From the NCBI GenBank assembly GCA_000165345.1, contig CM000431.1, positions 704,001 to 768,000 on the forward strand: a DNA stretch of 64,000 nucleotides, in the 5' to 3' direction. Positions within the stretch are counted from its first letter, which is position 1. Each line of letters starts with the position of its first letter. A program made the translations under genes and the position numbers. Shown here one piece after another: positions 34,901 to 52,800 of the stretch. Below the pieces are notes generated by a model. It was given only the letters and a program-made list of their open reading frames with translations, was not told the DNA's origin and made no database searches.

Positions 34901-37060
34901 TGGTATAACGTGATGATTAATTTCGTAATTAAGTAATTCAGAAGAAGAAATTCTACTTAAAAGCTTAAAAGCAATATCCCGATTAGATATTTTCTTGTAA
35001 TAAAGAGAGCTGAAGTTTATTTCTAGTTTATATCTGTTCTTTAAATCATTACATTCCAAAAACGCCCAATAAACTTGATTAATTTTATTTAAAGGAATTT
35101 TATTAATAGAATAGCGTTTATCGCCAGAGCCTGCCCAAAGGATACCATTCGAAACAATTTGTTTTGGAAGTACATGATTGTTTGAATAACTGTACTCATT
35201 TAGAAAAACTGATGATAAAAGGAATAAGCAACGATCAATATCTCCATTGGAAACGTGTTCCAACGTAATAGCTCTATCTGCTATCAAATTTAGTAATTTG
35301 TTTTTGTTAGTTACAAATGGGAATACTTGATTCACTAACCATGATGGAATTTCTTTTTCAATTTTCTCTGGCAAATTTACGGGCAAATTACTCAATGATT
35401 CTAATATAATTTCACTTCTAACTTCCTCATCGCCATCACCAAAGTGAATAAAGTGTCTGTTAAAAAGAAAAAAAAACTCCTCAACCAAGTTAAAAGATAA
35501 TAAGCAGTTACATAATTTTCCCAAGTCACATTTTAAAAATCTCTTTAATAAAATATCCCAATTTGTGTCGATTTCGTTTGGGTTAGAATCATATTCTGAA
35601 CATATTTTAAGTGCAGCTTCAAAATTTTTATAGTTATTTTTATAAATTATATCGAAAGTTATTGACTTTTGAATGATGTAGTTCATCTTCATTATGTGAG
35701 AATTACTCGAGTTTGAATTTTCAAGAGCGGAAATTAGTGAAGAAAGTAAATTTAGTGCATCTTCAACATTATATAAAGGAATTTTGTCTAAATACTCAAA
35801 TACATCATTCCAATCAACTTTTTCTGAATTAGAAATCAACTTTGTGAGTTGGGGAATTACTATATTAAATTTGAAAGCTCTATCGAACTGATTATTTAAT
35901 GTTTTTTCGGAATTTAAAATAATTTGTTCATCTTTTACGTTATAATTTTCAAATCTAGGAATTCTTTTGTCTTTAATTAAATTATAATTTGGTTCTTCTT
36001 CCAAAATATTAATGAGAATATTGCCGGTTTTCTCTTCTAAAGTACAACCTGCATAAAAAATAGTTGTTTCACACAAACCATGTGAGACAAAAGGAATAAA
36101 AGATGTGTTTAAGTCATTATAATTTGCTATGCATATTTCTGAAGAAATTTCGTGGCCTTTAAAAACCACTACACTAGAATCGTATACTATAATGTTTGCC
36201 AAAATATCGTCTAAAAATTTGGTCTGAGAAATATTAATAATATTATCTGGATCTTTGATATTGATTTTATTAGCCCTTAGTGGAATAAGGTTATCACTTG
36301 AAATGGCTATCTCAATTCCATTAAATGGAATTCCATCCTCGATATTCAAAAATATTACATTTACAATATTGCCTTTTACTGCTTTATAAAACGAAATTAG
36401 TTTAAAATCACATTTTCCCAAAGACATGTTTAAGATCTCTCCAATGGACAAAGAGTCTATCATTGTGCATTTAATCGTATTGCTATCAATATAAAATTTT
36501 TGTATAAAACTCGAATTTACAACAAATATCCCATTCTCGCATGGTGTTGCTCCTTTACTTTCGGTTGTTATTATGTTTCCAATTTCAATGGAATAACCTG
36601 AATTGAAGCGATCAATAGAAACAGGGAAAAAACCAGAAGAAAAATTAACTATAGCAATGATTCTTTGACGATCAATTGGTATATTAGAGAAGTTATCTAT
36701 TAGTATAATCTCGGAGTTTTCAATAGTTTTTGTTAAACCATGTTTCGCAGTTTTTACTTCGAGGACTGATTCATTTTCCAATGCAAGTAAATACACTGAA
36801 CTGCTGCTTAATATTATAAATAAATTATTATCTATCCATATACCATTTAATATTAATTCTTCCTCTGAATTGATCTTCCAAGAATAAATTAATTTCGCGT
36901 TCTCGTGATCTTTCGTAATTATAAAGAAAAATACTAAGTTTTCCACAATGATAGATAGCCTTTCATTGAAAATGGTTACCTTTCGAATACTATTTGTGTA
37001 TTTTTGCAAGTTTAGACCAGGTAGACTTCCTAGTTCGATTACTTTTTTTAGATACATCAA
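28982..37060 (-). CDS. Giant hypothetical protein (2,692 aa). The N-terminal ~350 aa is probably a beta-propeller; the rest alpha-solenoid-like.
   Basis: Single uninterrupted 8.1-kb ORF, convergent with KRR1 (stop codons 6 nt apart). No catalytic or named motif recognised. Confidence 0.6.
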   Translation of the reverse strand: MMYLKKVIELGSLPGLNLQKYTNSIRKVTIFNERLSIIVENLVFFFIITKDHENAKLIYSWKINSEEELILNGIWIDNNLFIILSSSSVYLLALENESVLEVKTAKHGLTKTIENSEIILIDNFSNIPIDRQRIIAIVNFSSGFFPVSIDRFNSGYSIEIGNIITTESKGATPCENGIFVVNSSFIQKFYIDSNTIKCTMIDSLSIGEILNMSLGKCDFKLISFYKAVKGNIVNVIFLNIEDGIPFNGIEIAISSDNLIPLRANKINIKDPDNIINISQTKFLDDILANIIVYDSSVVVFKGHEISSEICIANYNDLNTSFIPFVSHGLCETTIFYAGCTLEEKTGNILINILEEEPNYNLIKDKRIPRFENYNVKDEQIILNSEKTLNNQFDRAFKFNIVIPQLTKLISNSEKVDWNDVFEYLDKIPLYNVEDALNLLSSLISALENSNSSNSHIMKMNYIIQKSITFDIIYKNNYKNFEAALKICSEYDSNPNEIDTNWDILLKRFLKCDLGKLCNCLLSFNLVEEFFFLFNRHFIHFGDGDEEVRSEIILESLSNLPVNLPEKIEKEIPSWLVNQVFPFVTNKNKLLNLIADRAITLEHVSNGDIDRCLFLLSSVFLNEYSYSNNHVLPKQIVSNGILWAGSGDKRYSINKIPLNKINQVYWAFLECNDLKNRYKLEINFSSLYYKKISNRDIAFKLLSRISSSELLNYEINHHVIPFCKIRGLEADQIIMEYLLELISSINYNSLESNLNSTDGKKYYQPRIISLINSITNDEYKAHALLQYLSLNNKCLAIDRNIDLKFPHSAQNEIDFLMSYAKNISVNGKKSFELKNRIALIDAQNLLSRYNLDSMASIILFEKNAPRRLILHVISQVDAGIESFNDAMFLIDYLKQETNTTFMGISEAYCLRLRFLIFRRRNIIEWEKMTKKSIKEIHNKTIEEDILDIFSNVDCKKIYSITQQFVCFVWQFLDCYSKNCIKSNRLKIRCEIATYSAVVVLRELFKTIQENKWKLRQNTFWTSNESFNTLIRLQQLQFEFGIYIRPSDIMIDKMDHDQNCLIGKEIQDKMTYLEPIQNKNTLSNPFGKIEADLCNKQIIDESFISEWRNGYFQLYKESCYIKLCEIFDEFAQPYFEKKISDEKKKGIFTKLLRLGSLIGVDESYIRRTNIRNSLRDGGKLCIFRRLTQELFKTPSSKNAITIVDEVQNIILNLLTVDLVDKKKNYAAKFDKESRIDGLELIFIFSKLLQVVATCIPYCPIKLISFVLALSSDILWVHDFLLYASDAIDNIENPNNKLISNHLDNHLFSKIIMKSLKNLHFLPLDSYKSYYKEICTLYPFTDAKQIVMAFLYTKIRIFKELSKQISIKKIYISPFLIYNFWTDPTLWTIQTNENYPIDVGKYIQELRENVDVLAKQLYQSECLTLAMSIYLKHPLLISDVKLALNINTEFFRKVLKGRDPIDGQLCMALSSSLEKKDSWNVFVQSLNPSNILDNYYRTQRMARIGWDLGILFNHYSMRKEMEDLHKQSKWCNSFRQLKIEFDQSLFFQKQDPQNNNQGYKKSIICKLIHKSDFDLILCLQYAKDYNINDEYILFLWSKQMILHNFDPKFELIMQNILSFVTPELGKEIFESTFEFISSFNYERLKFVLNWYNKNCINTIELPNSMNAYLRTEANNEYSTSSSSSEINKGFVENQNHKNISTISKLEVLKILSTYKRVCPADKDEKLFIKNEAERINGNIELGKKVNFKVESNKYRIPFHYLIKHPINALKYEINDETIYKIKKMSEYLGIKNISIDIQFVWNIVLCRKYKYLSENNLLKTESNEFQEYCFKLVESDKILLRYIESIASVDLEAGIAIVLLVIDEIPLSKTKIKLIEWCERKSGSIARVELKKGYPIINMEFLLYNRFNEVIINIENYLKSKKSLISSKLILKKHKLDIIFSKLIEETNDINIFISSLYYYLTPLISEGIYWKFRNKLQESVCQSFCIDPKPEREIYSFSRKNSIEKSPGSSNFTLKENFNFFIDEISSVYSSDIRKIRVRIIKNLLSKPFETPYEALKNKFPTIKDIFKDIESSGIITGFDHWYRIQSLNSKVYDCTYIDRISFICGGISLNDAIILLLSISFKNSSNYSYSTKCNALKTLFQIASIKNIQKRYPKYDDLQVIWLHNYYMIYFNELHIPQDFSKFYLSEKVGLARSLWREFNNRKDSYKLLKPNQIHLDQIEDTKDAEFLKDENRKRKVRCIVGKENEYSNALYLSSNTRCQSVDKKLNQILYLITKLCLDFGIYDSNLFSNTIKNLYLQLFDENDVKIFSNLIFAAYISGYIYKVKINKSIIDVWNLLVLDPIFLLKNTVEYISNLINKYAQNGKDKKECVYNNNLLYNLPNKRFIIPILSKIFNTCPVIPFIEVFELLNAIIELINSILNLKKLIESLNSFSKENDRRLINNILSFFTNLIKDISENNKINSLEKRCKLSSIMRDKNFDIYEVNSIFDVAIIELLFSYVNPVDLHYALFSMNREKIIKVIIDKKDSFNMLPYLIYSTNSNILASALSNELIKTNNSKLFFEIGAQLDELIDFKRKSQVEEIYLMESIKATQVYEFIVNKYKNIYSTESVRIIRRCIEFYKIEAIIPLIIKFLSGQVKSESAIVEQISLLENRANNHELSKKEIYNYIKEVIIKLSKKYKSTNIVQELIDQLKS

Positions 37061-37481: not shown

Positions 37482-40400
37482 TTGTATTCAAATACAAATT
37501 TAACAGGCGTGATGAGAAATATAGATTTTTTTGAAATTTTTAAAAGATTGGATATTAATTATACAAATAAACAAGTAAATTCATGTTCAAGTATTAATTT
37601 AAAAAAAGACAGTATTCAACAAGAAGTTAATTCAAAAGAAAATCAACCACCTGAAAGTGGTGGATATAAACATCGTGAAAATGATGGAATATATTTAGAC
37701 ATTAACTTCAACTCTAACTCTATTGCACTCCAGCCATGTATCGCAATTAAAGAGAAATCATTCAGATTACCAATATTTGAATTGACGTATGATTTTCAAA
37801 TGCCTAATACTACATACCAAGTTAAACAAAACAGCAGGCTTTATGAAGAAATTTACTCATTAGTATATGCAAATTATTCAAATATCATAATTAATGAGAT
37901 TACTCCTTCGAGAAAAATAAAAATTTCTGAAACAAAACCTATTTTTGAAATCTCTGAAAAAGAAGGGAATCAATATTCTATATTTTGGGATGATGAAGAT
38001 ATCAAATCCAACTCATCAATTTTACTTGGTGAGTTTACTGGATTGCTGTATAATGACGAAAAAAAATACTATAACAAGTATTCTTTCAAATTGCCCAATG
38101 TTTCAAATGAAGAGTTAAGTGTTATTTTGGATGCGTCTCATTACTGTAATGAATTTGCTTTTCTAAAACATTGTAGGCTCCCCTTTCCATTCGATGATCA
38201 AAGAATAAGACCAAACACTCAGTTACAGTGGTTATTTATTGATAAATGGCCACATCTTGTTGTATTAACTATTCCTGGAATCGAAATTAAACAAGGCGAT
38301 GAACTTGTTGTCGATTTTGGGAACAATTATCATATGTATTACGTAAATAGTTTGAAAACAATATTTAAAAACATCATCAAAATTAAAGCGGAGAATACGC
38401 AAATTTTCCAAATTTGCACTGTATGTAGACTTGAACTAGAGAAAAGCATTATTGAATGTAAAAAGTGTATAATTTGCCGTGAATACATACATGATAAGTG
38501 TGGTTATTATTATAAAAACAGTGGAAACTCGGTTTGTTGTACTACTTGTTTAAAAAAATCTTTTAATATTATCTTTGGCATTAATAAAAAATTTGATTAT
38601 CCCTTCAGCGGAACAAATAATTCGAGTAAGGATTCAATTATTAGTATACTAAAAATTTATGATGGGGATGCATGCGAAGAATGTTTATCATTGTTTCGTA
38701 AAAAAGACTTGGAATTAGAAAGATGTAAGTCTGCATTCTTTTGTAAACTACTCCATGAATTTTATCAGGTAGATAAACACCCTGATAATATTGACTCTTT
38801 TTATGCAGAATATAATTCCAAAAACGAGACAGAACCAAAGTCAAGCATTAATATGGACATTAAAGCCCTTGAAAATATTTATTATATTTTTGAAAGACTA
38901 GTGAAATACTTAAAGGATTTTTATGATGAAAACAGTGTTTGCGAAAGATTAAAATTTGAATCATATTTTTCCCAAGATAATTATGTTGGTTATTCAAACC
39001 GTCAATCAAAATGTTTATTTCCAGATTCGTTAATCTACGAAACATGGGGAAAGTCGAAATGGAAAGATTTTATTTTTTGGGATCAGGCAAAAAATTCTTG
39101 GGTCGGATTACTAAGACCAAATGGGATATTTTCAAGATTCGATTGCTGTAATAAATATCCAACTATAATTGAAAGTTTTTATGAAACAGAAAAGTGGGTA
39201 GAACAGAGAATAAGCGAAACTACAATTCCAAAGAATTTGATTTCTGCAATATTGAATAATTCTGATAAAGGTTCCAATTGTAATGAAAAAGACTATTCTA
39301 AAAGTCAAGAAGATATTGTTTCACATACTTATTACCACTCGCCGTATTTACCTACTGATCTAGCATCACACCCAGACTTCAAAATATTCAGCAATGAAAA
39401 TGGAAACAAGTATCAAGGTAATTTACCTCCAGTCAACGAAACTAATAATCTATTTTCAATGAATGATAATCAGTTATTGAATGGAAAACTCAAGAACGCA
39501 AATGCTACTCATAGTGTTGAATCAGAATTGTTCTCATTTTCAAATTCGCCTGAATTTTTATTAAATGATATTAGACCACGTGTTTCTACCACAGGTTATA
39601 TTCAATGCTGTTCGCCAGTCAACAGAAAACGTAGAATAAGGTCAACTCTCCCCTTAACTTCGAATGCTGCAAAATGCCCAACTGAATGGAGAGTAAGAGG
39701 GATCACGTGGCATGCAGAAAGAAAAGCATTTATTGTACCATATAGAAGAGATAAAGATGGTGGGCTTACTTCAACAACTTTTGGTGCAATGAAGTATGGA
39801 AGCCCTTTGACTGCATTTTTAAAAGCTTTAGAATTTAGGGAAAATTATTTAAAGGAGCAGGCGACAAAGTTACCAGAAGAAATAAAGCAGCCAAGTGTTA
39901 TTTGTGATCAAGCATTATTAATTAGAAATTTACCAAATATAATTTGGGATTCGAACAAACTTGTATGGAGAGCTCTTGCAGATGAGGAACTCCTATGCAA
40001 TAATAACTTAACACATAAATTAACTTTTTATACACAAGATATTGAAATAAACGCAATGCCTTATGGAGCAAGAATTGCATATGAAATAGCCGAAGTTTGC
40101 TATATTCGTAGAAAAGCATTACTTCTTAACTCAAAGGTAAATACTATAAAAAATTCATCTGTAAGCCGTATAAGAAATAAGAGTAATTCATTAGAGGGTC
40201 ATGGAGACGAGTACCAATTGATATTAGAGGATCAAAACCATTTATTATTACCTAAAAATTCACAAATGGATATTTCAAACTCGCAAAGCTCTTGTTTCAA
40301 ACAAATCAGGTTGAAAATTATTTTTCCAAATGGAGAGGAAGTTATTAGAAGTGACTTGATTGCATGGCATTTTAGGAGTAATTCATGGATAATTACCAAT

Positions 40401-41144
40401 ATGATTGATGGAAGTACATCTAATCAAACGAAAAATATTAGTTTCCTCAATTATTCAGATTCCAATATAAAACAGAAATCTCTTATTCAATCATTAATTT
40501 ACGCAATTGAATGTTGTACATCTATACCTCCAAAGTGTCAAGTATACGTTCATGCAGAGGAAGCTGAGTCAATAATTGATTCTGAAGATCTTGCGGAATT
40601 GTTGAAACCTTTCCCAACAGGGATATCGTGGTATTGCAAAAAAAGAAGGTTTTATACATCAAATGGGCTTGATAGTAATGGAAGAGGACAACACTTTAGT
40701 ATTGCATTATACGGTTCACTTATTTCTGCATTTAATGCCGCAATTGACTATAGAAATATTTTTTTGAAAAATAGGAGAAAGGCTATTTTGCCAAAAGTTG
40801 AATGGATTCTATGCTTTCCTGTTAATCAATGTTCAACTAATACAGGTTCAAATGAAAGAATAAGCGATTCAGATATTATTAATAATCGAGATATAGTAAA
40901 GGAATTGGATAGTTGCAACATTTATCATTTATCCGATAATTATATGGGGAGTTGTAACGATAGAAATATTGATCGAATAAATAGTCAAATATCATCATTA
41001 AATACATGTATTTCAGGAGATTCATATCATTCTGGAAGTGATTGGCTTCAACATCCAACAACAGTTTCATTGTTGGACGATCAGATAATTGAGCCACAAA
41101 ATGATTTGGATAACAGAATAATGAATATTGAATTAATAGAATAA
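37482..41144 (+). CDS. ApiAP2-family DNA-binding protein with two AP2 domains plus an N-terminal SET-like domain and a PHD-like Cys-rich finger.
   Basis: AP2-1 (nt ~39671-39855): CPTEWRVRGITWHAERKAFIVPYRRDKDGGLTSTTFGAMKYGSPLTAFLKALEFRENYL. AP2-2 (nt ~40621-40775): ISWYCKKRRFYTSNGLDSNGRGQHFSIALYGSLISAFNAAIDYRNIFL. SET-like (nt ~38019-38340): ILLGEFTGLLYNDEKKYYNKYSFKL … ILDASHYCNEFAFLKHC … HLVVLTIPGIEIKQGDELVVDFGNNY. PHD-like (nt ~38415-38560): CTVCRLELEKSIIECKKCIICREYIHDKCGYYYKNSGNSVCCTTCLKK. Confidence 0.7.
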   Translation: MYSNTNLTGVMRNIDFFEIFKRLDINYTNKQVNSCSSINLKKDSIQQEVNSKENQPPESGGYKHRENDGIYLDINFNSNSIALQPCIAIKEKSFRLPIFELTYDFQMPNTTYQVKQNSRLYEEIYSLVYANYSNIIINEITPSRKIKISETKPIFEISEKEGNQYSIFWDDEDIKSNSSILLGEFTGLLYNDEKKYYNKYSFKLPNVSNEELSVILDASHYCNEFAFLKHCRLPFPFDDQRIRPNTQLQWLFIDKWPHLVVLTIPGIEIKQGDELVVDFGNNYHMYYVNSLKTIFKNIIKIKAENTQIFQICTVCRLELEKSIIECKKCIICREYIHDKCGYYYKNSGNSVCCTTCLKKSFNIIFGINKKFDYPFSGTNNSSKDSIISILKIYDGDACEECLSLFRKKDLELERCKSAFFCKLLHEFYQVDKHPDNIDSFYAEYNSKNETEPKSSINMDIKALENIYYIFERLVKYLKDFYDENSVCERLKFESYFSQDNYVGYSNRQSKCLFPDSLIYETWGKSKWKDFIFWDQAKNSWVGLLRPNGIFSRFDCCNKYPTIIESFYETEKWVEQRISETTIPKNLISAILNNSDKGSNCNEKDYSKSQEDIVSHTYYHSPYLPTDLASHPDFKIFSNENGNKYQGNLPPVNETNNLFSMNDNQLLNGKLKNANATHSVESELFSFSNSPEFLLNDIRPRVSTTGYIQCCSPVNRKRRIRSTLPLTSNAAKCPTEWRVRGITWHAERKAFIVPYRRDKDGGLTSTTFGAMKYGSPLTAFLKALEFRENYLKEQATKLPEEIKQPSVICDQALLIRNLPNIIWDSNKLVWRALADEELLCNNNLTHKLTFYTQDIEINAMPYGARIAYEIAEVCYIRRKALLLNSKVNTIKNSSVSRIRNKSNSLEGHGDEYQLILEDQNHLLLPKNSQMDISNSQSSCFKQIRLKIIFPNGEEVIRSDLIAWHFRSNSWIITNMIDGSTSNQTKNISFLNYSDSNIKQKSLIQSLIYAIECCTSIPPKCQVYVHAEEAESIIDSEDLAELLKPFPTGISWYCKKRRFYTSNGLDSNGRGQHFSIALYGSLISAFNAAIDYRNIFLKNRRKAILPKVEWILCFPVNQCSTNTGSNERISDSDIINNRDIVKELDSCNIYHLSDNYMGSCNDRNIDRINSQISSLNTCISGDSYHSGSDWLQHPTTVSLLDDQIIEPQNDLDNRIMNIELIE

Positions 41145-41199: not shown

Positions 41200-44100
41200 A
41201 TGAACAGAAACTCGATAATATCTCAATGCAACGTTGATCCCACTGTTTTCTTCTATTATTCAGGTAATAACTTCCACAAAAAATTGGGATTATATTTTAT
41301 TGATGATTTTACCTACGAAAATATTAATAAAATTTTTGAACACACAAATGAGTCAAAACTAACTTTTACTCCAGCTATTGGTGAAATATCAGACCCAATT
41401 TTTTCCGGAGAAACATCTATTGAATATTCATCCGAATTTTTCCCAAGATTTTCCTGGAGCAAAAACGATACTTTTGGTGCATTTACAACTGGTATTTCTC
41501 GCGAAATAAAAATATTGTATTTGAACAAGGGGCAACTCCAAATTTCAGAAGAGATTCATACTCCTGATTACTTTTGTTCTTGTCTTGAACTAAATAATTA
41601 TGTAAATTTTCATTTATTGGCTTCTTCCAATATTAAATATTTCAATTCTCAAAATTTCGCTCAAGGAATTATTTCTATAATCGATTCCAACACTAAACAA
41701 AACATTGTAAATTATCATAAAGGTTCTAGCTTCGAAAGACTTAATAATATTTCCGGATATCCTAATAATGTTAAGTGGATAAACTCCAACTGCTTGGTTT
41801 CTGGCTGGAAGCTTTGTAATTATTCAAGCCAATTGCATTTTTACGACATACGAGCTAAAGATGCAATTTTTGCTACCAATATTATGACCAATTGTAATGA
41901 ACTCCTAGCAGTTAGCCAAACTGGAGGTAATTATTTACTTTCCAGTAACTTAAATAACATTATTTGTATATTTGATATAAGGTTTATGAAAAATGAACCA
42001 AGACAAAATATTATTCAAACATTAAACTGCATTTATTTTAATGATAATGAGATCAACGATATACAGTGGTTTCCAAATGGAGAACTCAATATTTCAATTT
42101 ATACTAATGATGGGATCTTTATTGCAGAGTTAAATAAAGAAATAAACTCACATATATCTTTTGAAGCATACAAGTCAGATAATCGTTTTGAAAATATCTA
42201 TTGGAATGAAAATTTAATCAAGCATTACAAGCCATTAAGTCTTAAAGAAGATTTCAGCGATACATTTTGTTGGGTTAATTATTTTGGAGGAAGTAACAAT
42301 AAACATTCATTAGTATACACAACTTCTGAGTCTGCATATCTTTTATCAAATTTAGAAATTAAAATTAATTCTTTTCCTACCTTTCGAATTTCTCCACTGG
42401 ATTCTCATTCAATAGATACGAAACATAAGCCTCAAAAAATTAATTACAGGGTTTCAAATTCTCCAAAATTGTTTGGTTACTCATGGATTCCATATAGGAT
42501 AATAAAATACTATAAAAATGATAAGAAAATTGAAGAGTACAACTGCATAGAGTTATTGAGAAGACTTGAGAACATAAATTCAACAGAAGCTAGAAATTTG
42601 GTCATTAATCAAAATGATCAGAAAAAGTTAATTGATATTGGAATTTTCCCATTAGCATTAAATAACTTAACTAATATTATAAAAATTATTAAATCTGCTT
42701 CTCATGCATTTAATTACTTATCAACTTTACCTAATCGAATTATTCATTGGAAAGATATTTTGAGGCAATTTAACAAGCAAGGCCTATTTAGTGGTGAAAA
42801 CGTGTCTGTTTTAGATAAATTAATGTTACCAGGAATCAGAGACTTAGTTTATATTTTTAAGTTGGAAGCAGGGAATAGTGATATATCTACCCAGCTGAGA
42901 TTTATTAATGTCAAGTATGAAGATTTAGAAAATAAGTCTTCTAAATGCTTGAATATGAGAGAAAATTTTCATCACATTGAAATATTTTGTTCTCCTTTTA
43001 GAGAGAAGTTAATAAATCTTTTTGGAGTATCCTCATTTATTATTGAAACGCCTATCTTTATAGACAATAATGACCCAATTCAATTAGAATCATTTTTAAT
43101 CACATTTTTTTGGAACTGCATTACACTTCAATACCAGAATTTTATTTCTCACGGTGATAAGCTATCAAATATTCTTGATAATTTTATTGATAATGAAAAT
43201 AAGCTACTCAAATCCTCTTTTTTAAAAAATATTAAGTTGTTTTTTAATTCTGCTGGGATTTTTATTTCGAATTTATATTCTTCAGAAGAACTAAATAAAA
43301 TTTCTTTAAGCAGAAAAGATATTCAGTTCTACTACTATTCAATTATTTCAACAAGCGAACATTTACTAGATGAAGATTATTACTTGCCTATTTGGAACAG
43401 CAACATTCATTTTGAATCTAGTCTTCAACTTTCAATAAGATTTATTGTTGCATTTTCCAAATTTATTAATATCCATGATCAAAACAAGCAATTTTCTTCA
43501 TATTTATTGGATGAACTATTAATTCCTTCCATGAGAATAAACTCTTATATTTATATTCCTGCTAATTTGTTACTTTTGATTGGAATTTATTATTTACCTT
43601 TGGAGGAAATTTGTAACTTGATAGAAATAATTATAAGAAAAATGGCTCAAAATGGTTTTTTAGATGGAATATCAATTTTAGGGTTTAATACATTTACTGA
43701 TGAAACATTTTTGTTAAGAAGTTTTCCTGATAACTACAACTCTGAACAATTTGAAACCTTTCTCGGGAATTTCAATTTGAACGAAAATCTTGATTCGATA
43801 TTTTTAGAGCCAGAAAATAATATAAATAAAAATTTTGGTTATAATTTGAGCTCTCAAGTATTTCTTAATTTAATTTTTCGCAAATATTTATCTCTTTCAT
43901 TTGGAGATATTCAAACAGTTGCATTAATTGGATCGTGTATTCCTAATCTCTCTGGTGGTCTCAAAAAAAATATGGAATTATTAAAGATTTGCATTGATGA
44001 ATACAAAGATTTATTGAAGAATAACTCTTTAATATATTATCTAATTTATAGCTCAAACATAATCGGCCTTTTAAAAAATGGATCTAAATCCGCAAAATTT

Positions 44101-44796
44101 ACTTATAATAATGTATCGGGCATACTTTATGAGCTTAATATCCTAAGATCGAGTTACTATAAAATGATTCATATTGACCAGGATCAATTAAAGCCACTAT
44201 TACCAACTGGGAATATATTATTTTGCTATTATTGCGAGCAGCCATTATGCCAAGCATATTTCGAGCAGAGTTGCTTTTTTGAAAAAAGCAATTCGAACAT
44301 GGATTGTAATTCAATAATTTCTCAATCATTCAATACAGACCTTTCTGAAGTTCAATTAGACAAAAAAGAAATAGTTTTTAAGAATATTTATAATAGAGAC
44401 TATCAGGTAGGATATTCGTTACGTTGGACAAGCAGTAATAAATCAAGTATAAATAGTTTAATTCAACCTGAAGCTATTCAAAGTTTGGAGTTATCATCTA
44501 TGATCTTAAACTGCCCTAATAAATATTGTAACAAACCTCTACCAAGATGCGTAATTTGTTTGACAGAAATGTCTATCAATGTGATTAGTAATTCAATCAA
44601 TGATGACGCTGCGCAAAAGGACTGTACTCAACAATGTAATTATAATAAATTGAGTAAATGGTATACTTGGTGTTTGCATTGCCACCATGGCGGATGTTTT
44701 AAACATATCAGTGAATGGTTTGAGTGTTTTGATGAATGCCCTGTACCGGAGTGCAATTGTTGGTGTAATTCAGTAGATCGTTGGCACAAATTATAA
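41200..44796 (+). CDS. WD40-repeat protein with a C-terminal GATOR2/SEACAT-type zinc finger (Mios/WDR24/WDR59 = Sea4/Sea2/Sea3-like).
   Basis: N-terminal region has WD-like strands (…DIQWFPNGELNISIYTNDGIFIAEL…). C-terminal 100 aa (nt ~44527-44796): CNKPLPRCVICLTEM…WCLHCHHGGCFKHISEWFECFDECPVPECNCWC resembles the GATOR2 RING signature C-x2-C…C-x2-C-x-H-G-G-H…W…CP-x-G-C-x-C-x-C. Confidence 0.5.
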   Translation: MNRNSIISQCNVDPTVFFYYSGNNFHKKLGLYFIDDFTYENINKIFEHTNESKLTFTPAIGEISDPIFSGETSIEYSSEFFPRFSWSKNDTFGAFTTGISREIKILYLNKGQLQISEEIHTPDYFCSCLELNNYVNFHLLASSNIKYFNSQNFAQGIISIIDSNTKQNIVNYHKGSSFERLNNISGYPNNVKWINSNCLVSGWKLCNYSSQLHFYDIRAKDAIFATNIMTNCNELLAVSQTGGNYLLSSNLNNIICIFDIRFMKNEPRQNIIQTLNCIYFNDNEINDIQWFPNGELNISIYTNDGIFIAELNKEINSHISFEAYKSDNRFENIYWNENLIKHYKPLSLKEDFSDTFCWVNYFGGSNNKHSLVYTTSESAYLLSNLEIKINSFPTFRISPLDSHSIDTKHKPQKINYRVSNSPKLFGYSWIPYRIIKYYKNDKKIEEYNCIELLRRLENINSTEARNLVINQNDQKKLIDIGIFPLALNNLTNIIKIIKSASHAFNYLSTLPNRIIHWKDILRQFNKQGLFSGENVSVLDKLMLPGIRDLVYIFKLEAGNSDISTQLRFINVKYEDLENKSSKCLNMRENFHHIEIFCSPFREKLINLFGVSSFIIETPIFIDNNDPIQLESFLITFFWNCITLQYQNFISHGDKLSNILDNFIDNENKLLKSSFLKNIKLFFNSAGIFISNLYSSEELNKISLSRKDIQFYYYSIISTSEHLLDEDYYLPIWNSNIHFESSLQLSIRFIVAFSKFINIHDQNKQFSSYLLDELLIPSMRINSYIYIPANLLLLIGIYYLPLEEICNLIEIIIRKMAQNGFLDGISILGFNTFTDETFLLRSFPDNYNSEQFETFLGNFNLNENLDSIFLEPENNINKNFGYNLSSQVFLNLIFRKYLSLSFGDIQTVALIGSCIPNLSGGLKKNMELLKICIDEYKDLLKNNSLIYYLIYSSNIIGLLKNGSKSAKFTYNNVSGILYELNILRSSYYKMIHIDQDQLKPLLPTGNILFCYYCEQPLCQAYFEQSCFFEKSNSNMDCNSIISQSFNTDLSEVQLDKKEIVFKNIYNRDYQVGYSLRWTSSNKSSINSLIQPEAIQSLELSSMILNCPNKYCNKPLPRCVICLTEMSINVISNSINDDAAQKDCTQQCNYNKLSKWYTWCLHCHHGGCFKHISEWFECFDECPVPECNCWCNSVDRWHKL

Positions 44797-44867: not shown

Positions 44868-47800
44868 TCAATGATTAGTATCTGCTTCGTTTATTTTAAC
44901 ATTGACATTATCATCTTGCTCTACGTTGCCAAGCGATTCATTGCTTGACTGCTCCATCTCCATAATTGAGTCAGCAATCCTTGATTCATATCTCAATGAG
45001 ATTAACCATATTATTCCGATTACAATGCTAATTGCAAAACCTATAAACGTGGCAAAATTTAAAATAACGATAAGAGTGTCTTTGGTTCTACCGACCATCC
45101 CACAAAACGTAACGATCCCATTTGTAAAGTCAACTGAAACTTGTCCACAATTATGAGCTTCTGTCTTTATACTATTTAAAATCATTGCACTCCCAAACAT
45201 TTTCCTTATTCTATCGTTTAGAACCAAATTTAGTCTCTCGACCTCATTAGCTGCAAAGTTAGTTGGGTTAATTAAATAATCGTAACTAATACTGGCAATG
45301 TACTCTTGGAATTCAACGTATTTGCATGTATTATTATAGTATTTAATATAAAGGCTGTTATTTCCAAAATTGGGAATTTCCTTTATTCCTTCAATATCTA
45401 TCCAAGAAAATGGATAACAAAAAAAATTGTGATTATACAATTCCATTGATTTCTTTACCCATACTAGCGTATGTTTAAAGCTCGAAATTGGATAGTCCTT
45501 AAAATGTTTATTATCTTTATGATATTTTTCTATGGCTAGCTGATCAATGTCTGTGTCTGCTGAAATGATTAGATTCTCTTCTGAATTTGTATTATCCTCT
45601 GTAATAGAAGATGTTGGCTCAAATATATTTTCTAAGCTAGATAATTTTGAAGTAGGATTCTCCTCAGTTTTCTCTTGTTTTCCGTTAATAGTATCTGAAG
45701 TATCTACCAAGTATTTTATTTTAAATGGGTATATTATTGATTCAAGAACTTCCAAGCCAGGAACCTTAATTGGCAATGACTGAGAAATCATTAAAGTTGA
45801 AACATTAGAATTAGGACTGCTACATAGAGCAGTGTATGTAGTGTAGCCGAATATAGAACTTTTCATTAGCCAATTTTCTTCTTTGTAGCTCTGAGTTATT
45901 AAAACTAATACAGGCACGTCTTGTTCATCTGGTGTAGATTTCTCCACATCTGGAAAGTACATTAAAGAATATTTTATGTAGTCTGTTATATTCATGTAAT
46001 TAAAACATTGTTCTGCTATTGCTTGGCTGGTGGAAATAATATTGATATATTCTGGAACAATTTTTGACATATCATTGACAAAAGAGCCTGGTAGCAATTG
46101 AACTAATAAATAGGATAGACTGCTTTCTATTGGAGCATCGTCCAACAAACCAACTATTTCCTGATTACCGAACCTTTCAGCAAGTAAAATATCATTTGAG
46201 TTACTTTTTAGTAGTTCATTATTATAATTCAAAAACAAATTGGAAATAAAGTCATTTTTATTCATTGCTCTGCTTTTTGTACTCAAATCTCCCAAGTATA
46301 ATTCACTTTTTAAACTCTCGTTACTAAACAAGTGATTCTGATTCAACAAAAATCGAGGGCTTTTATTTGAATAGTTGAAAAATATGTCTTTAATATTTTC
46401 GCTATCTTTGGACTCATCACTCTGAAGTTTATTAAATAAATCTAAATATATATGATTTTTTATTCCATGATATTCTAAAACCCTTATCCTATCAGTTATA
46501 AAATCTTTTTCATTAAGATATCTTTTGTTATCACTTTTAATCTTAATATACGATGCAAGTGGATACATACATATACTCATAATCATTCCTAATTCGGGAC
46601 TTACAGTTGAAATCCAATTCATCCCTATTGGACTAAACAAATCACTAACTATCCAACCACAATAGTCTTTCCCTACTGTTCCTGAAACCGTTAGAGTATA
46701 TGAAACAAATGAAACAAATGTAGACAATCCCATAAATATGAATGCGACAGCAACCAATGCTGACCTACTTTGGAAAAATCCAATGTGACTTCTTCCAGAT
46801 AAGAATAGTTTTATGTGAAGAATTGAAAAAATAATTGAAATTACTCCAATTATTGTAGATGAAACGCATAGCACTGTAATTATTACAAACACAATGTTGC
46901 TTGCAGTCCTAGATACATTTAAAAATAATAAAATGTATGAAATAAATTTTTTGAAAATTTCAAAGTATTCATTAACACTAAATGACATTGATGAAGTATC
47001 CACTGATTTTATAATGTCAGTTATTTTATTTAAAACCGGAATCATAGAGTTAAATAAAGTTTCATTCACTGGCATAAATGAATTTACAGCATTTAATACA
47101 GAGTTCTTAAGTAATTCTTTGGCCGGAATATACCAATCAATTCCATTAGGATTAATTACTGATGAATTGGTAAAAACATTTGCTAATTCATTTAGTCTTA
47201 TACTTAGAGCAGTTGGAAACCCTGCACTTCTAATGTAATTAATTGTGTCTTTAAAAAATTCAATTAATGTTTCAACTGAACCCAATTCCTGAAATAAACC
47301 GTAAAGTGGTAGTGATCCAATGAATGGAACTGTTGTATTTGTTTTCAAGAATGATTTTGCAATACTGAACGAACCTGAAGTTGTGTTAATATTTATATTG
47401 CCATTTGAAAATGCATCCGCTCCAATTGCAAACCAACAAACTGATGTTAAAAAAGAATCAGAAAAGGCAAAAAAGTTTACAATAATCACAATAGAAAGAG
47501 TAATATAAATAACACATAGTCCACATAATAGGGTACTCAATATATATATACTCAGTTTTACTTTCCATAATCCGTTTGATGTTTCTTCAAATGAAACAAC
47601 TCTGTCGTTCATTACTCTGCACAAAACAAACCCAAGAGATACGGCAATAAAGGTAAAGATTGAAATACCAAAAATTATACAACTGGCAATTTCTCTCCAA
47701 ATCAATGCATCTAAATAGCTGGATATCAGCGGTTTAAGATTTATGTGAGTTTTATTGGAATCTGCAATGATTGCATTTTCAAAAATTATTCCTGCTAAGA

Positions 47801-48080
47801 CACTATAATCTGAATGCCACGATTTGAACGATTCCCACATTTCCTTTTTATAAGCGAGATCACTTTCTTGAAGTTTGTCGTACCTCCCACAGTTTTCAGA
47901 GACAAATTCTTCCAGAGTAGATACCCTGGAATAATTAATAACTTGCTGTGCCTTTTCAAGGCTAGATAAAATATATGGAGTGCTAACTGACCATGGTATA
48001 TCTGTTAAGGAGGCCTCAACTTTACCAAAAAGGTATATACATATACAAAAGATGGATGTTATGCAATATTTAACAGACAT
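44868..48080 (-). CDS. Signal-peptide-bearing multi-pass membrane glycoprotein (1,070 aa), prominin/tweety-like topology, acidic cytoplasmic tail.
   Basis: N-terminal hydrophobic signal (MSVKYCITSIFCICIYLFGKVEAS). TM helices at ~aa 120-145, 175-215, 375-420 and 440-465, a large Cys-containing loop, a last TM at ~aa 985-1015 (LIVILNFATFIGFAISIVIGIIWLISL), then a tail ending …EQDDNVNVKINEADTNH. Many N-x-S/T sites in the predicted luminal loops. Confidence 0.6.
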   Translation of the reverse strand: MSVKYCITSIFCICIYLFGKVEASLTDIPWSVSTPYILSSLEKAQQVINYSRVSTLEEFVSENCGRYDKLQESDLAYKKEMWESFKSWHSDYSVLAGIIFENAIIADSNKTHINLKPLISSYLDALIWREIASCIIFGISIFTFIAVSLGFVLCRVMNDRVVSFEETSNGLWKVKLSIYILSTLLCGLCVIYITLSIVIIVNFFAFSDSFLTSVCWFAIGADAFSNGNININTTSGSFSIAKSFLKTNTTVPFIGSLPLYGLFQELGSVETLIEFFKDTINYIRSAGFPTALSIRLNELANVFTNSSVINPNGIDWYIPAKELLKNSVLNAVNSFMPVNETLFNSMIPVLNKITDIIKSVDTSSMSFSVNEYFEIFKKFISYILLFLNVSRTASNIVFVIITVLCVSSTIIGVISIIFSILHIKLFLSGRSHIGFFQSRSALVAVAFIFMGLSTFVSFVSYTLTVSGTVGKDYCGWIVSDLFSPIGMNWISTVSPELGMIMSICMYPLASYIKIKSDNKRYLNEKDFITDRIRVLEYHGIKNHIYLDLFNKLQSDESKDSENIKDIFFNYSNKSPRFLLNQNHLFSNESLKSELYLGDLSTKSRAMNKNDFISNLFLNYNNELLKSNSNDILLAERFGNQEIVGLLDDAPIESSLSYLLVQLLPGSFVNDMSKIVPEYINIISTSQAIAEQCFNYMNITDYIKYSLMYFPDVEKSTPDEQDVPVLVLITQSYKEENWLMKSSIFGYTTYTALCSSPNSNVSTLMISQSLPIKVPGLEVLESIIYPFKIKYLVDTSDTINGKQEKTEENPTSKLSSLENIFEPTSSITEDNTNSEENLIISADTDIDQLAIEKYHKDNKHFKDYPISSFKHTLVWVKKSMELYNHNFFCYPFSWIDIEGIKEIPNFGNNSLYIKYYNNTCKYVEFQEYIASISYDYLINPTNFAANEVERLNLVLNDRIRKMFGSAMILNSIKTEAHNCGQVSVDFTNGIVTFCGMVGRTKDTLIVILNFATFIGFAISIVIGIIWLISLRYESRIADSIMEMEQSSNESLGNVEQDDNVNVKINEADTNH

Positions 48081-48198: not shown

Positions 48199-49830
48199 TT
48201 AAATATTTTTTTCTTGTAAGATTTTACAAATTCTAAGTAATTCCCTACATGAACTAACTACATTGCACTTAACTTGCTCGATATCTTTAATATCCTTTGC
48301 ACTGTTGTACAAATTCTTAGTGATTTCTAATAAGCTTTCATTAAGTTTAGGCGCATTTGAATTTAATTCAGGCTCTGAATTTAAGTTACACCTTATTTGA
48401 GAATAATGTATGTCTCTATGTTCAAAAAAATGGCTTCTTTGATTGGATAATAGGACCTTTTTGTAGTTTTTATCATCAAAAGCTGAGCCACTTAATAATT
48501 TAGGCGAATTTAAGCACTCGTTTTCAGCAGAAACAGTGTAGCATAGTGATTTTGCGTTCGATAATATTTCAAGTGGACTAATAGATAAGTTTGATTGATT
48601 AACTATTAATTTCAACGTATGGTTAAAGTCAGAGTTTACTATTGCACTTCTTCTTGCAAGTAGTATTGAAATAGCAATAAAATTTACTATTGGTAAAGAT
48701 GATTCAACTGCTTCACAGACCTCTTTATTTATATTTTTTCTCCCTTTTGCAGAACCATCCATTAAAATTTCGCTATTAGAGAATTTCCCATTTTGAAGGG
48801 CATCACAAAAGATGCCTTCCCAAATTATAATTGAATTATTCAAATCGGAAAATTCTCTAGAAAATAAAAGTCTAATCCATCTTAAAAAAATAAGTTGGGG
48901 TTCAATTTCATGCTCTCTATATAGATGAATAAACAGCTCATAATCTACCTTTTCTAAAATGCCATAAATATTTATACATCTATGTACTATCGGAGGTTTA
49001 TTCGAATCATCGTTTTTCATTGAATTATTATCATTTGAATTACACTCATTGTATGTGGATTTAAACATATATTTTAAACCAAAAACATTCATAACAGAAT
49101 TAAACATAATATAAGTATCTGCTTCTATTGAATCGCTCCTAAAAATGTGTTCTAAACTGAAATTATCTCCATTGTATTCATTCTTTGACTCTAGACCATT
49201 AGAATAAACTCTATTATCAACAATTTTCTGACTGTGATTTATCAAAAATAAAATTGCAGCAATTTCATTCATTCCCTGCTTGTATCCCAGATCAGGGTTC
49301 TCGCGTGTCCATGTGAACAATATTCTTTGCAAAAGTTGTCTCGTATTTGAGTCAGAAAAAAGTTGTCGTTCAGAATAGGTTCTTGTGACGTCTTTCCAAA
49401 TTTCATCTAATAATTCACCATTTTTGTGTTGTTCATTCCACGGGTTATTAGCAATCTGAGATAGAGGATGAAACTTTAAAGGGTCCATTGAAGTAACTTT
49501 ACTAATATCTAATTTATTTTTGTTAAAAGAGCGAGAATAATTGCTTCTCTCCATTTCTAGTAATTCGTGAATTTTTTTATAGCAATCATGAATTGAAAGC
49601 GAAAAAAAATCAACAGGGATAATTCTGAGTAGAATCATCCACTTAAGACGTGGGATATCCAATATATTTTCATTTTTTCCTTGTACATATTTTACATTAC
49701 AAACATTTTCGGTATATTTAATAAAGTTTTGTTTTGGATTACCTTTCAAATATTCAAAAAAATCTATAAAGCTTGAATCTTCGATTTTTGAATAGTACTC
49801 GTCATTCTCAAAAACTTCAAAATCTGTCAT
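48199..49830 (-). CDS. TBC-domain Rab GTPase-activating protein.
   Basis: TBC Arg- and Gln-finger region RQLLQRILFTWTRENPDLGYKQGMNEIAAILFL (nt ~49180-49290), matching I..D..RT…Y.QGM. Start codon lies 32 bp downstream of the preceding gene's stop. Confidence 0.75.
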   Translation of the reverse strand: MTDFEVFENDEYYSKIEDSSFIDFFEYLKGNPKQNFIKYTENVCNVKYVQGKNENILDIPRLKWMILLRIIPVDFFSLSIHDCYKKIHELLEMERSNYSRSFNKNKLDISKVTSMDPLKFHPLSQIANNPWNEQHKNGELLDEIWKDVTRTYSERQLFSDSNTRQLLQRILFTWTRENPDLGYKQGMNEIAAILFLINHSQKIVDNRVYSNGLESKNEYNGDNFSLEHIFRSDSIEADTYIMFNSVMNVFGLKYMFKSTYNECNSNDNNSMKNDDSNKPPIVHRCINIYGILEKVDYELFIHLYREHEIEPQLIFLRWIRLLFSREFSDLNNSIIIWEGIFCDALQNGKFSNSEILMDGSAKGRKNINKEVCEAVESSLPIVNFIAISILLARRSAIVNSDFNHTLKLIVNQSNLSISPLEILSNAKSLCYTVSAENECLNSPKLLSGSAFDDKNYKKVLLSNQRSHFFEHRDIHYSQIRCNLNSEPELNSNAPKLNESLLEITKNLYNSAKDIKDIEQVKCNVVSSCRELLRICKILQEKNI

Positions 49831-49862: not shown

Positions 49863-52800
49863 TTACTTAGTCAAATTCCCCGCAAAATCTTTCGCATTAT
49901 AATTGGAGAAATTTATTTTTTTTTCATGGATATTTGATAGTAGGAAATCAAGGCGTTTTTCAAAAAAACTTATATAAAAACTGCTGTTTTCAAATATATC
50001 TTCTCTATTATTAATCTCCCTATATTTGGAAATTATAATCAATTTTCTAATTGATATCACAAAAGTTAAAATGCTTACTTCATCAATTAAAACGCTCCCA
50101 AAAAGTTCGATACTTATTAGTTGGGTCGGACACTCCTTTATACAATCATAAACTCTTTTAAACAGATTAATTTGACTCTTTATTTGCGTCCCCCATTGTT
50201 CAAAATGGAGCTCAATTTTCGATATTTCATCTGAATTTAGTGTTTTTTGGCTTATAGCTTTAAAATATTTGAAAATCTGACAAGTTGCTACCTGGGAAAT
50301 ATTCAAATATTCGTTACAAATATTATCAATCTCCCTTGGGAAAAATACGGAGTTATTTTGAGTTTCCATACTCCGTAAACTTTCAGATATTACGTCCAAG
50401 ATTATTATCGAAAATAAACATGAATTCTGGTCATTAAGCAAGACAATTTGTTTAATTTGATTTTCGTATTCGTTATAGCAATTTAAGCCACTGCCGTGAG
50501 AATCTTCATTTTGATGTAAGAAGTTACTACAGAAATATTTGATAATATGGATAAACGAATTAAAAGTAAGAATTGCTTTATTTTCGATGGACGCAGCTTC
50601 GTCAGTTATTAAATAAATTAAACAAACCATTAAGTTGTACCAATAATTGTGGTTAAAACACAACAAAAAAAGAATTGTTCCTTCATGAATATCATTAATG
50701 CCAATTTTTGTACAGAATAAGTTTCTAATTCTATCATTTTTTTCAACTTTTATTTCCAAAAATAATTCAGTTTCCAGAGATTCAAAAATAGTTCTTATTA
50801 TTTTGCAGATCAAACATTTTTTTTCAAGTGTTAACTGTGTTCCATTACATATGTTGTTACAAACCATCTTTAAGATTTTATCAAATACTATCTTTTCAAG
50901 TTCGTATACTATAAAATACGGAATACTATCATGTCTTGCTATATTTTTGTAAAACCTAATAAAAAAAATAGAAAATTCCAAAATCGCAATTTGATCTTCG
51001 AAAAAGAATCTTCCAATTTTGCTGTTTATTAAATCTATATCAGTTTTTTCCTCAGAGTTTTCATCTTCACCTTCGCTAGTCTTATATTTAGAAAGCTCTT
51101 GGTGATAAATCAGGTCAAAAACAGACTCTATTATTGAATCAGATTGTTCGTTTTCTAAAAAAACAAAAGACAACTTATAATTATAACCAATAAAAGATAA
51201 GCACCCTGTCAATACTTTAACTAAGTCTGTTAATATTGATAATTTTCTAATTTTCGTCTTCTCATTTATGTATTGCTCTTTATTGTTTGCTGAAATTAAA
51301 TGTTTTATGGACTTTAAATTGTTATCAATTAAGTTAAAAAGTTTCTGAACGAAGGTATCCTTCTTTTCTGATATAGATAGAATGTCAATAATTGACGAGT
51401 AGAATTCAAGTAAAATTTTCGGATGAATGATTTTATCAAAGGCTGGAGATAAACAAATTAATGAGTTTAATTCTCCAGAATCAATATATTTAAAAACATT
51501 ATTAACAATTATTTTTATCAAGTATATATGCTCTGATAGATTTTCATTAAAATAGTTCTTTGGATGACTTATTGATAAATATAGATTATTGTTTAGATTA
51601 GAGAAATCTATATAAAGTGTTTTAGATTTTGAACTGATGTTTTTCCAATAATAAATTAGATTTTCCAAACAATTCGATTTTTCATTTATAGGAAATTCAA
51701 GTTCAAATAACAAACTCATTAGTTCTAACGCCGTTATTCTTAATAGTGGATGCTTAAATGTTGTAAAGCTATCTCTAATAAAAACCAACAAATTTTCGTA
51801 AATTGAATTGTCTATAGATTTGAAAGAATTCCAACAAGATTGATTTTTAAATTTTTTCATCAGAACAATTCCCAAATTTAGAATTCCATGAATTAAGTTA
51901 TATTTATTCTCTGAATTGTTAATCGAAAATTTGATAGATTGAAAAATTAAATTTAGTAAAGAATTGGCTTTAGAAGCTTGATTATTCGAGTTATTGATAA
52001 AAATTTCAAGCAGGATTCCATCTAAATTTGCATTAGAAATTTCATTTAGTGGATGTAAACTCAAATTAGGGATATTTAATGTTAAAAAAATAATCTCTCC
52101 CAATAACTTTGAAGAATACATTCTAACGAAATATGAACTTGAATAAATTGATTTAATAATGCAAATAGCAAGCTCGTATGAGCAATCTGCCCATGAAATA
52201 GATATTTCAGTAAGTAGTAACAGAACCATTCCTTGAAATTGCGTATGAGTAGAATTTAGCAAAATATCAATAATGCATGGCTCAAAAATACCTGAAATTC
52301 TTTTAATCGATTTTAGTGAAAAACGGGTAGAAGTATTGATTTCAGATATCAAAGAATTAACACAATTATAATCAAATTGTTTATTTAATACGATTGATAA
52401 AACATCTTTGAGCACTTTATTAAATAAAATGGGTAAGTCGTCTGACCCCGGTGTGGTTTTAAAATCATTATTAAGAATTTCGCATCGATTGTTCGTCTTG
52501 CTAATATATTCAATATTACTTTCTATTCCGTTTGCTTTGAAACTAAACCTTTTCAAAAGTGCAGACATTAAATTCAATGAAGAATTGCATAAAGCAAACC
52601 CGTTTTCGTCTTTAACTTTCAAATCGTATATTTTAATATTATTGAATGCTGAAAATAAAGAACCACATAGTAAACTCAGATCAAAAATTTCGCAAAGAGT
52701 ATTTGTTCCAGAACTGCTTTTTGATTTAGAAATTAATTTTGCGAGGATATGATTAGAGTGAATACTGCATCTATAACGCTGGAATAAAATATAATCAGAA

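Follow-up and report, generated by a model that had tools for sequence, protein, structure and literature searches.

Why would a parasite reported to lack TOR keep a gene for a GATOR2-type protein? GATOR2 is known nearly only for feeding amino-acid signals into TORC1, and its roles apart from TORC1 are a matter of debate. The question is raised by a gene of the apicomplexan Cryptosporidium parvum that lies in a window of 64 kb (the whole stretch of DNA analyzed here; positions 704,001 to 768,000 of contig CM000431.1, GenBank assembly GCA_000165345.1). From the letters of this window alone, an earlier note had singled out the open reading frame (ORF) at 41200..44796 and proposed that it encodes a protein with WD-repeat-like segments followed by a RING of the kind found at the C-terminus of Mios, WDR24, and WDR59 (yeast Sea4, Sea2, and Sea3). 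We found this ORF to be intact and uninterrupted. It encodes a protein 1198 amino acids long that is almost certainly the C. parvum orthologue of Mios/Sea4, a scaffold subunit of the GATOR2/SEACAT complex (Table 1). The protein is identical to the product of a called gene in the C. parvum assemblies GCA_015245375.1 (CP044420.1, 1.10-Mb chromosome) and GCA_048859185.1. The window is approximately 30% G+C, and its long, intron-free ORFs are tightly packed.

Identity of the 1198-codon gene

The ORF ends with ...WCLHCHHGGCFKHISEWFECFDECPVPECNCWC, and its last 96 codons (44509-44796) translate as NCPNKYCNKPLPRCVICLTEMSIN...WYTWCLHCHHGGCFKHISEWFECFDECPVPECNCWCNSVDRWHKL*, exactly the cysteine- and histidine-rich motif that the earlier note had quoted. 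In a Pfam scan, the sole significant family was PF17034, zinc_ribbon_16 (E=1.9e-14; score 54.4 bits, gathering cut-off 27), a profile to which the earlier note had pointed, and all 13 Cryptosporidium orthologues also matched it. The zf-RING_16 family (PF17120), which is the zinc domain of WDR24/Sea2 and WDR59/Sea3, gave no match in the protein even at E<=10, and neither did RWD or the Vps families. Using phmmer against all PDB chains (E<=10), we obtained human MIOS (3e-14), engineered MIOS constructs, and yeast Sea4 (4e-9). The non-significant remainder consisted of CIAO1 (E=1.7) and WDR24 (E=3.8), with no Vps/HOPS chain and no ordinary RING E3. A profile built from 13 Cryptosporidium species and searched against PDB (E<=1) matched MIOS (8.9e-18) and Sea4 (2.9e-10), no chain of WDR24 or WDR59, and otherwise only weak generic WD40 proteins at residues ~190-308. 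Thus, the proposed Sea-type C-terminus holds and can be narrowed to that of Mios/Sea4; among solved structures it is closest to MIOS and Sea4 and not to Vps/HOPS proteins or generic RING E3s, best matches to which would, by the earlier note, have refuted its reading. An exhaustive HMMER profile search of 1.84 billion representative sequences retrieved 645 proteins at E<=1e-3. Full-length matches among these were from Cryptosporidium only, and all others were confined to profile positions ~1100-1193. The PF17034 match, the match to MIOS in PDB, and this profile search confirm that the C-terminal motif is far above chance. By its sequence, the protein resembles Mios/Sea4 more than it does the paralogues WDR24 and WDR59.

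The Pfam models for the rest of Mios, MIOS_WD40 and MIOS_a-sol, are blind to the Cryptosporidium protein and we therefore turned to profile-profile comparison. Using hhalign, we compared a profile of 13 Cryptosporidium sequences with one of 32 canonical full-length Mios sequences. The two were colinear across 841 columns (probability 100%, E=6.7e-41). Taken by region, the N-terminus aligned with the Mios propeller (98.4%, E=8.9e-15), the middle with the Mios solenoid (96.3%, E=1.6e-9), and the C-terminus with the Mios C-terminus (99.8%, E=1.7e-29). Mismatched domain pairs all gave a probability of 0.1% and E ~0.5, and reversed-sequence templates gave E=0.76, 0.48 (solenoid), and 0.006. The aligned motif pairs (Cryptosporidium/canonical) included L-x-x-Y-D-I-R/L-R-v-x-D-x-R, F-D-I-R-F-x-K-N/W-D-x-R-N, W-F-P/W-C-P-T-R, S-P-F-R-E-K-L-I-x-L-F-G/S-x-x-R-x-x-A-L-x-L-C-G-W, G-F-L-D-G-I-S-I-L-G/G-D-L-E-G-I-L-L-T-G, G-D-I-Q-T-V-A-L-I-G/G-D-V-Q-T-A, and C-I-D-E-Y-K-D-L-L/W-I-E-S-Y-R-x-L-L-D. 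Conservation of the solenoid is strongest in a core at residues 600-830. Its Mios-type motifs include GFLDGISILGF at 819-829 and GDIQT at 902-906, within which G819, G828, and D903 do not vary in any of 55 Mios sequences; the patterns G-x-L-D/E-G-I, GD-I/V-QT, and Y-R/K-x-LL are found in both canonical Mios and the C. parvum protein. The colinear order of propeller, solenoid, and C-terminal zinc domain is that of human MIOS, Drosophila Mio, and yeast Sea4 (PDB 7UHY, 9LVJ, 8ADL), whose C-terminal domain is of the four-zinc kind. The earlier description of the ~1,000 upstream residues as WD-repeat-like therefore needs to be divided. It stands for the N-terminal propeller and fails for the helical α-solenoid, which makes up two thirds of the upstream region.

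Predicted structures agreed with this arrangement. AlphaFold2 run with nine Cryptosporidium sequences gave a model with a mean predicted local distance difference test (pLDDT) score of 29, usable for secondary structure only. With an alignment of 55 sequences the mean pLDDT was 60, and the confident parts were an all-β block at residues 80-310 (pLDDT 75-85), helical blocks at 550-830 (pLDDT 70-93) and 885-940, and the zinc domain at 1100-1127 and 1150-1190 (pLDDT 66-82). A WD40 propeller, on which the earlier note had staked its reading, is present as a β-propeller fold in this model, and the predicted WD40 fold is to that extent confirmed. When the model was searched against PDB with Foldseek, ranks 1-20 were held by MIOS (7uhy_A/B, 9lvj, 9lvk, 9lwf, 9oti) or Sea4 (8adl_B/G, 9h5k_B/G) chains only, with E-values from 5.9e-18 to 4.4e-9; because the AlphaFold2 alignment included canonical Mios, this result corroborates the sequence evidence without being independent of it. 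Generic WD40 propellers followed below rank 20, and there were no Vps proteins in the top 50. Chain identities were taken from the phmmer search of PDB.

Part of this identity was already on record, since the zinc-domain annotation is in the UniProt and NCBI records. UniRef labels the C. canis, C. muris, and C. andersoni proteins 'GATOR2 complex protein MIO zinc-ribbon like domain-containing protein', and NCBI labels that of C. felis 'GATOR complex protein MIOS isoform X1'. A UniRef cluster led by C. hominis, 96% identical to the C. parvum protein, is labeled 'WD40-repeat-containing protein'. Our literature searches found no paper tying GATOR2 or WDR24/59 to Cryptosporidium or Apicomplexa. New here are the full-length orthology to Mios, which Pfam misses, the purifying selection on the gene, and the variant zinc box described below.

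Table 1. Coordinates in the 64-kb window of the C. parvum gene and of the parts of its product.
Feature	Residues	Window positions	Strand	Basis or remark
Complete coding sequence, almost certainly the C. parvum Mios/Sea4 orthologue		41200..44796	+	single ATG-initiated ORF, 1198 codons plus stop, intron-free
WD40 β-propeller, N-terminal	~5-375	41212..42324	+	homologous to the Mios propeller by hhalign
α-Solenoid	~429-990	42484..44169	+	hhalign to the canonical Mios solenoid; AlphaFold2 helices
First C-x2-C pair of the C-terminal zinc domain	C1009 and C1012	44224..44235	+	translation CYYC
Variable insert dividing the zinc domain	1018-1100	44251..44499	+	low confidence, pLDDT <50
Mios-type zinc-ribbon/RING-like domain	1104-1190	44509..44769	+	Pfam PF17034 match
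W-C-L-H-C-H-H-G-G-C box	1157-1166	44668..44697	+	myzozoan variant of the canonical C-x2-C-R-H-G-G-H

Constraint on the gene and a lineage-specific zinc box

Full-length orthologues occur in at least 13 Cryptosporidium taxa. Their identity to the C. parvum protein falls from 96% in C. hominis to 79% in chipmunk genotype I, 69% in C. ubiquitum, 53% in C. canis, 45% in C. felis, ~38% in C. ryanae, and ~29% in the gastric clade of C. muris, C. andersoni, and C. serpentis. The ratio of nonsynonymous to synonymous substitution (Nei-Gojobori dN/dS) between C. parvum and C. hominis was 0.23 overall (N-terminus 0.45, middle 0.10, C-terminus 0.27). Against chipmunk genotype I it was 0.18, with every domain at or below 0.23. 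For the zinc domain, dN/dS was 0.15-0.27. Identity within the genus reached 0.77-0.86 at residues 601-800 and 0.89 over the last 48 residues (1151-1198). The neighboring genes are unchanged in three species. The intact orthologues, low dN/dS, and synteny together indicate functional constraint, and on these sequence comparisons we consider the gene to be under purifying selection rather than a decaying relic.

The C. parvum protein nevertheless differs from canonical Mios in several respects. It is ~320 residues longer, shares only ~12-19% identity outside the zinc domain, and has that domain interrupted by a variable insert of ~80 residues. This insert has the lowest within-genus identity of the C-terminal part (0.55) and was left unaligned to canonical Mios in the full-length hhalign comparison. 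On its N-terminal side, C1009 and C1012 are invariant in 55/55 aligned Mios sequences. Of the 16 Cys/His columns of canonical Mios, 14 are identical in C. parvum. Another has Cys in place of His (1166), and the last is lost, with Phe1177 replacing its His. Thus, the HGGH box that the earlier note had given as characteristic of the Mios/WDR24/WDR59 RING is present here as HGG, with a final residue that is Cys and not His (HHGG-Cys here, RHGG-His in canonical Mios), and the canonical W-F-x-x-H motif that follows ends in Phe (44668-44730 spans residues 1157-1177). All 14 apicomplexan sequences had Cys at position 1166, where the 41 other Mios all had His; at position 1177, the same 14 had Phe and 38/41 others had His. 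Among all retrieved matches there were 17 with the HGG-Cys form, every one from Cryptosporidium, a gregarine, Cardiosporidium, or Vitrella. The remaining box-matching Mios had HGG-His, except for one with RHGG-Tyr. In all 17 of the HGG-Cys sequences, and in no other retrieved Mios, the W-F-x-x-H motif has Phe or Tyr instead of its His. One zinc site may have been rebuilt in this lineage, and Asp1178 or His1162 might serve as a substitute ligand.

The closest matches outside Cryptosporidium were the gregarines Lankesteria and Ancora, the nephromycid Cardiosporidium cionae (KAF8820529.1), and the chromerid Vitrella brassicaformis (CEL97425.1, found inside one cluster). All share the HGGC box and an aromatic residue in place of the canonical His. 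The Vitrella protein, at 1193 amino acids, is close to that of C. parvum in length, although BLASTP aligns just the last ~90 residues of the two, and Vitrella differs from C. parvum in being a free-living phototroph. Since the nearest outside relatives are myzozoan and have the HGGC variant in common, the sequences fit vertical inheritance of Mios within Myzozoa.

Function in a parasite reported to lack TOR

The earlier note had reasoned from the premise that the genome might belong to an apicomplexan reported to be without TOR. This premise applies, as TOR-complex subunits were undetected in C. parvum, Plasmodium falciparum, and Theileria parva by van Dam et al. 2011 (PMC3236823). In this the host of the C. 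parvum protein is unlike that of canonical Mios. The only atypical kinases given in the C. parvum kinome paper are two of the RIO and two of the ABC1 type, with TOR unmentioned (PMC3227725), and a passage in Tatebe and Shiozaki 2017 describes P. falciparum as having lost TOR, Rag, and GATOR1 (PMC5745459). Two phylogenies of phosphatidylinositol 3-kinase-related kinases (PIKKs) place TOR in Toxoplasma gondii and none in Plasmodium, and mention Cryptosporidium for the loss of ATM only. We found no gene for TOR, Seh1, Sec13, WDR24/59, GATOR1, or Rag within the window. Given the report that C. parvum is without TOR-complex subunits, Mios there probably has an output other than TORC1 activation, and these published absence calls tilt us, if not strongly, toward an output independent of TOR altogether.

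Taken as a whole, the account we think likely is that the gene encodes Mios and that Mios belongs to a GATOR2-like scaffold whose output is not TORC1 activation. By analogy with its relatives, C. parvum Mios would most probably be an architectural scaffold and not an enzyme. Its build is of the protocoatomer type, with a WD40 β-propeller, an α-solenoid, and a C-terminal multi-zinc RING-like domain. As in the human and yeast complexes, a propeller of the Seh1 type would be the partner of the propeller and solenoid region. The zinc domain, again as in the solved complexes, would interlock with matching domains of WDR24- and WDR59-like paralogues to form a cage. Structures 7UHY and 8ADL have heterotypic junctions between C-terminal domains, whose role is structural. 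In yeast, the SEACAT complex is held together by its RING domains: Sea4 without its RING binds Seh1 only, and Sea2 or Sea3 without their RINGs bind no other SEACAT subunit (PMC8534245). The strict conservation of the zinc domain in Cryptosporidium therefore suggests that a partner zinc domain would still exist. We propose, tentatively and as the less probable extension of this account, that Cryptosporidium keeps a working GATOR2/SEACAT-like cage of Mios, Seh1/Sec13, and RING paralogues after the loss of TOR, and possibly of Rag and GATOR1 too. From the literature, candidate outputs other than TORC1 activation would be a vacuole- or lysosome-membrane, an autophagy-related, or a mitotic role.

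Four points weigh against this account. First, used alone, the Pfam models MIOS_WD40 (PF21720) and MIOS_a-sol (PF21719) do not match the Cryptosporidium protein, whereas they match canonical Mios strongly (1e-72 and 1e-81 for thrips MIOS). The low identity outside the zinc domain explains this miss, and the same two models do not match the Mios proteins of Cardiosporidium and Vitrella either, in which Pfam likewise detects the zinc domain only. Second, the confident AlphaFold2 model was built on an alignment containing canonical Mios sequences. Third, with a canonical zinc-ligand His lost to Phe1177, the metal stoichiometry of the domain may differ. Fourth, a supplementary BLAST table of Besteiro 2011 has TOR-kinase 'orthologues' entered for C. 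parvum and likewise for P. falciparum and Theileria. Because the table includes P. falciparum and Theileria, which are agreed to lack TOR, we read these entries as probably being cross-hits to other PI3K-like kinases.

Mios could instead be an orphan, kept with no GATOR2-like cage, that moonlights with Seh1 or alone, perhaps at the nuclear pore, the kinetochore, or the spindle pole as the parasite goes through its closed mitosis or meiosis. We think this improbable. Mio and Seh1 have been described as acting in mitosis and meiosis, in human cells and in Drosophila (PMC8534245), Seh1 and Sec13 also belong to the nuclear pore (PMC8421043), and genome reduction in Cryptosporidium frequently leaves complexes incomplete. 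However, conservation within the protein peaks in the zinc domain (identity 0.89 for residues 1151-1198; dN/dS 0.15-0.27). As its yeast counterpart binds the other RING subunits, its retention argues for a partner, and, in human cells, mitotic function appears to be tied to mTORC1 (PMC8534245).

A conventional pathway, in which a divergent TOR/Rag/GATOR1 axis has escaped detection and Mios relieves the inhibition of TORC1 by GATOR1, is in our view unlikely and, if anything, a shade more so. That Pfam Mios models miss the first ~1000 residues means that Cryptosporidium orthologues can diverge far. The table of Besteiro 2011 has its C. parvum entry, the PIKK phylogenies name ATM alone as lost from Cryptosporidium and are silent on TOR, and a 2025 survey refers in one passage to GATOR1 subunits in 'several apicomplexans', leaving the species unnamed there (PMC12290439). 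By contrast, no TOR/FRAP kinase was found in the C. parvum kinome survey (PMC3227725), the same BLAST table also gives Plasmodium and Theileria a TOR that later work rejected, and the TOR kinase domain, as one of the best-conserved sequences in eukaryotes, is difficult to overlook.

The idea that the protein is another RING-bearing protocoatomer protein, either a WDR24/WDR59 (Sea2/Sea3) paralogue or a HOPS/CORVET subunit such as Vps8, Vps11, Vps18, or Vps41, which share the propeller, solenoid, and C-terminal RING and are associated with the vacuole or lysosome, is effectively refuted. The solenoid region aligns with the solenoid specific to Mios, and the zinc ligands are not arranged as in RING-H2 fingers. 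WDR24 reached only E=3.8, zf-RING_16, RWD, and Vps matches were lacking at E<=10, the Foldseek top 20 were all MIOS or Sea4, and no Vps protein appeared in Pfam, the PDB sequence searches, or the Foldseek top 50.

Neighboring genes and implications

Immediately upstream of the Mios gene and in the same orientation is an ORF of 1220 codons (37482-41144, + strand) that stops just 55 bp before the Mios ATG. Its orthologues in C. hominis and the chipmunk genotype carry a 'faint' precomputed AP2 (PF00847) match, and it has AP2-like segments (RGITWHAERKAFIV..., GISWYCKKRRFYT...), so it may encode a divergent ApiAP2 factor. Our own Pfam scan of this ORF at E<=0.1 gave nothing beyond a chance-level match. 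Further upstream, on the opposite strand, an ORF encoding 2692 amino acids (28982-37060, - strand) matches Pfam ARM_KNTC1_3rd (E=5e-16), suggesting a KNTC1/ROD-like giant; the remainder of this protein is without a Pfam match. Downstream, a 1070-amino-acid ORF with long hydrophobic stretches (44868-48080, - strand) is convergent with the Mios gene, with 71 bp between the two stop codons. It is followed by a predicted TBC-domain RabGAP (48199-49830, - strand, E=2e-20), the second gene downstream of Mios, with no functional link evident, and by an ORF of 2427 amino acids (49863-57146, - strand). The 1070- and 2427-amino-acid ORFs had no Pfam match at E<=1e-3. Other ORFs in the window include those for POP1, PRP8, Tim44, a PLD-like enzyme, KRR1, eIF2B, and three protein kinases.

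The window also contains a gene for the cysteine protease ATG4 (23870-24916, + strand; Peptidase_C54, E=4e-56). Unlike that of other apicomplexans, the ATG8 of Cryptosporidium retains a C-terminal tail that requires processing by ATG4 (PMC8161075). The retention of ATG4 bears on the control of autophagy in a cell without TOR.

A full-length Mios under selection in a parasite reported to be TOR-less suggests that the scaffold has another job. If the tentative extension proposed here, a working cage kept after the loss of TOR, is true, Cryptosporidium would be a natural TOR-null background that shows an ancestral, TOR-independent job of GATOR2/SEACAT, possibly at a lysosome-like or feeder-organelle membrane, in the control of autophagy, or in mitosis. 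The rewiring of one zinc site in the myzozoan lineage, by His-to-Cys at 1166 and His-to-Phe at 1177, would then mark an altered junction between domains. As C. parvum is genetically tractable, tagging or depleting Mios could show what this scaffold does without TOR as a confounder.

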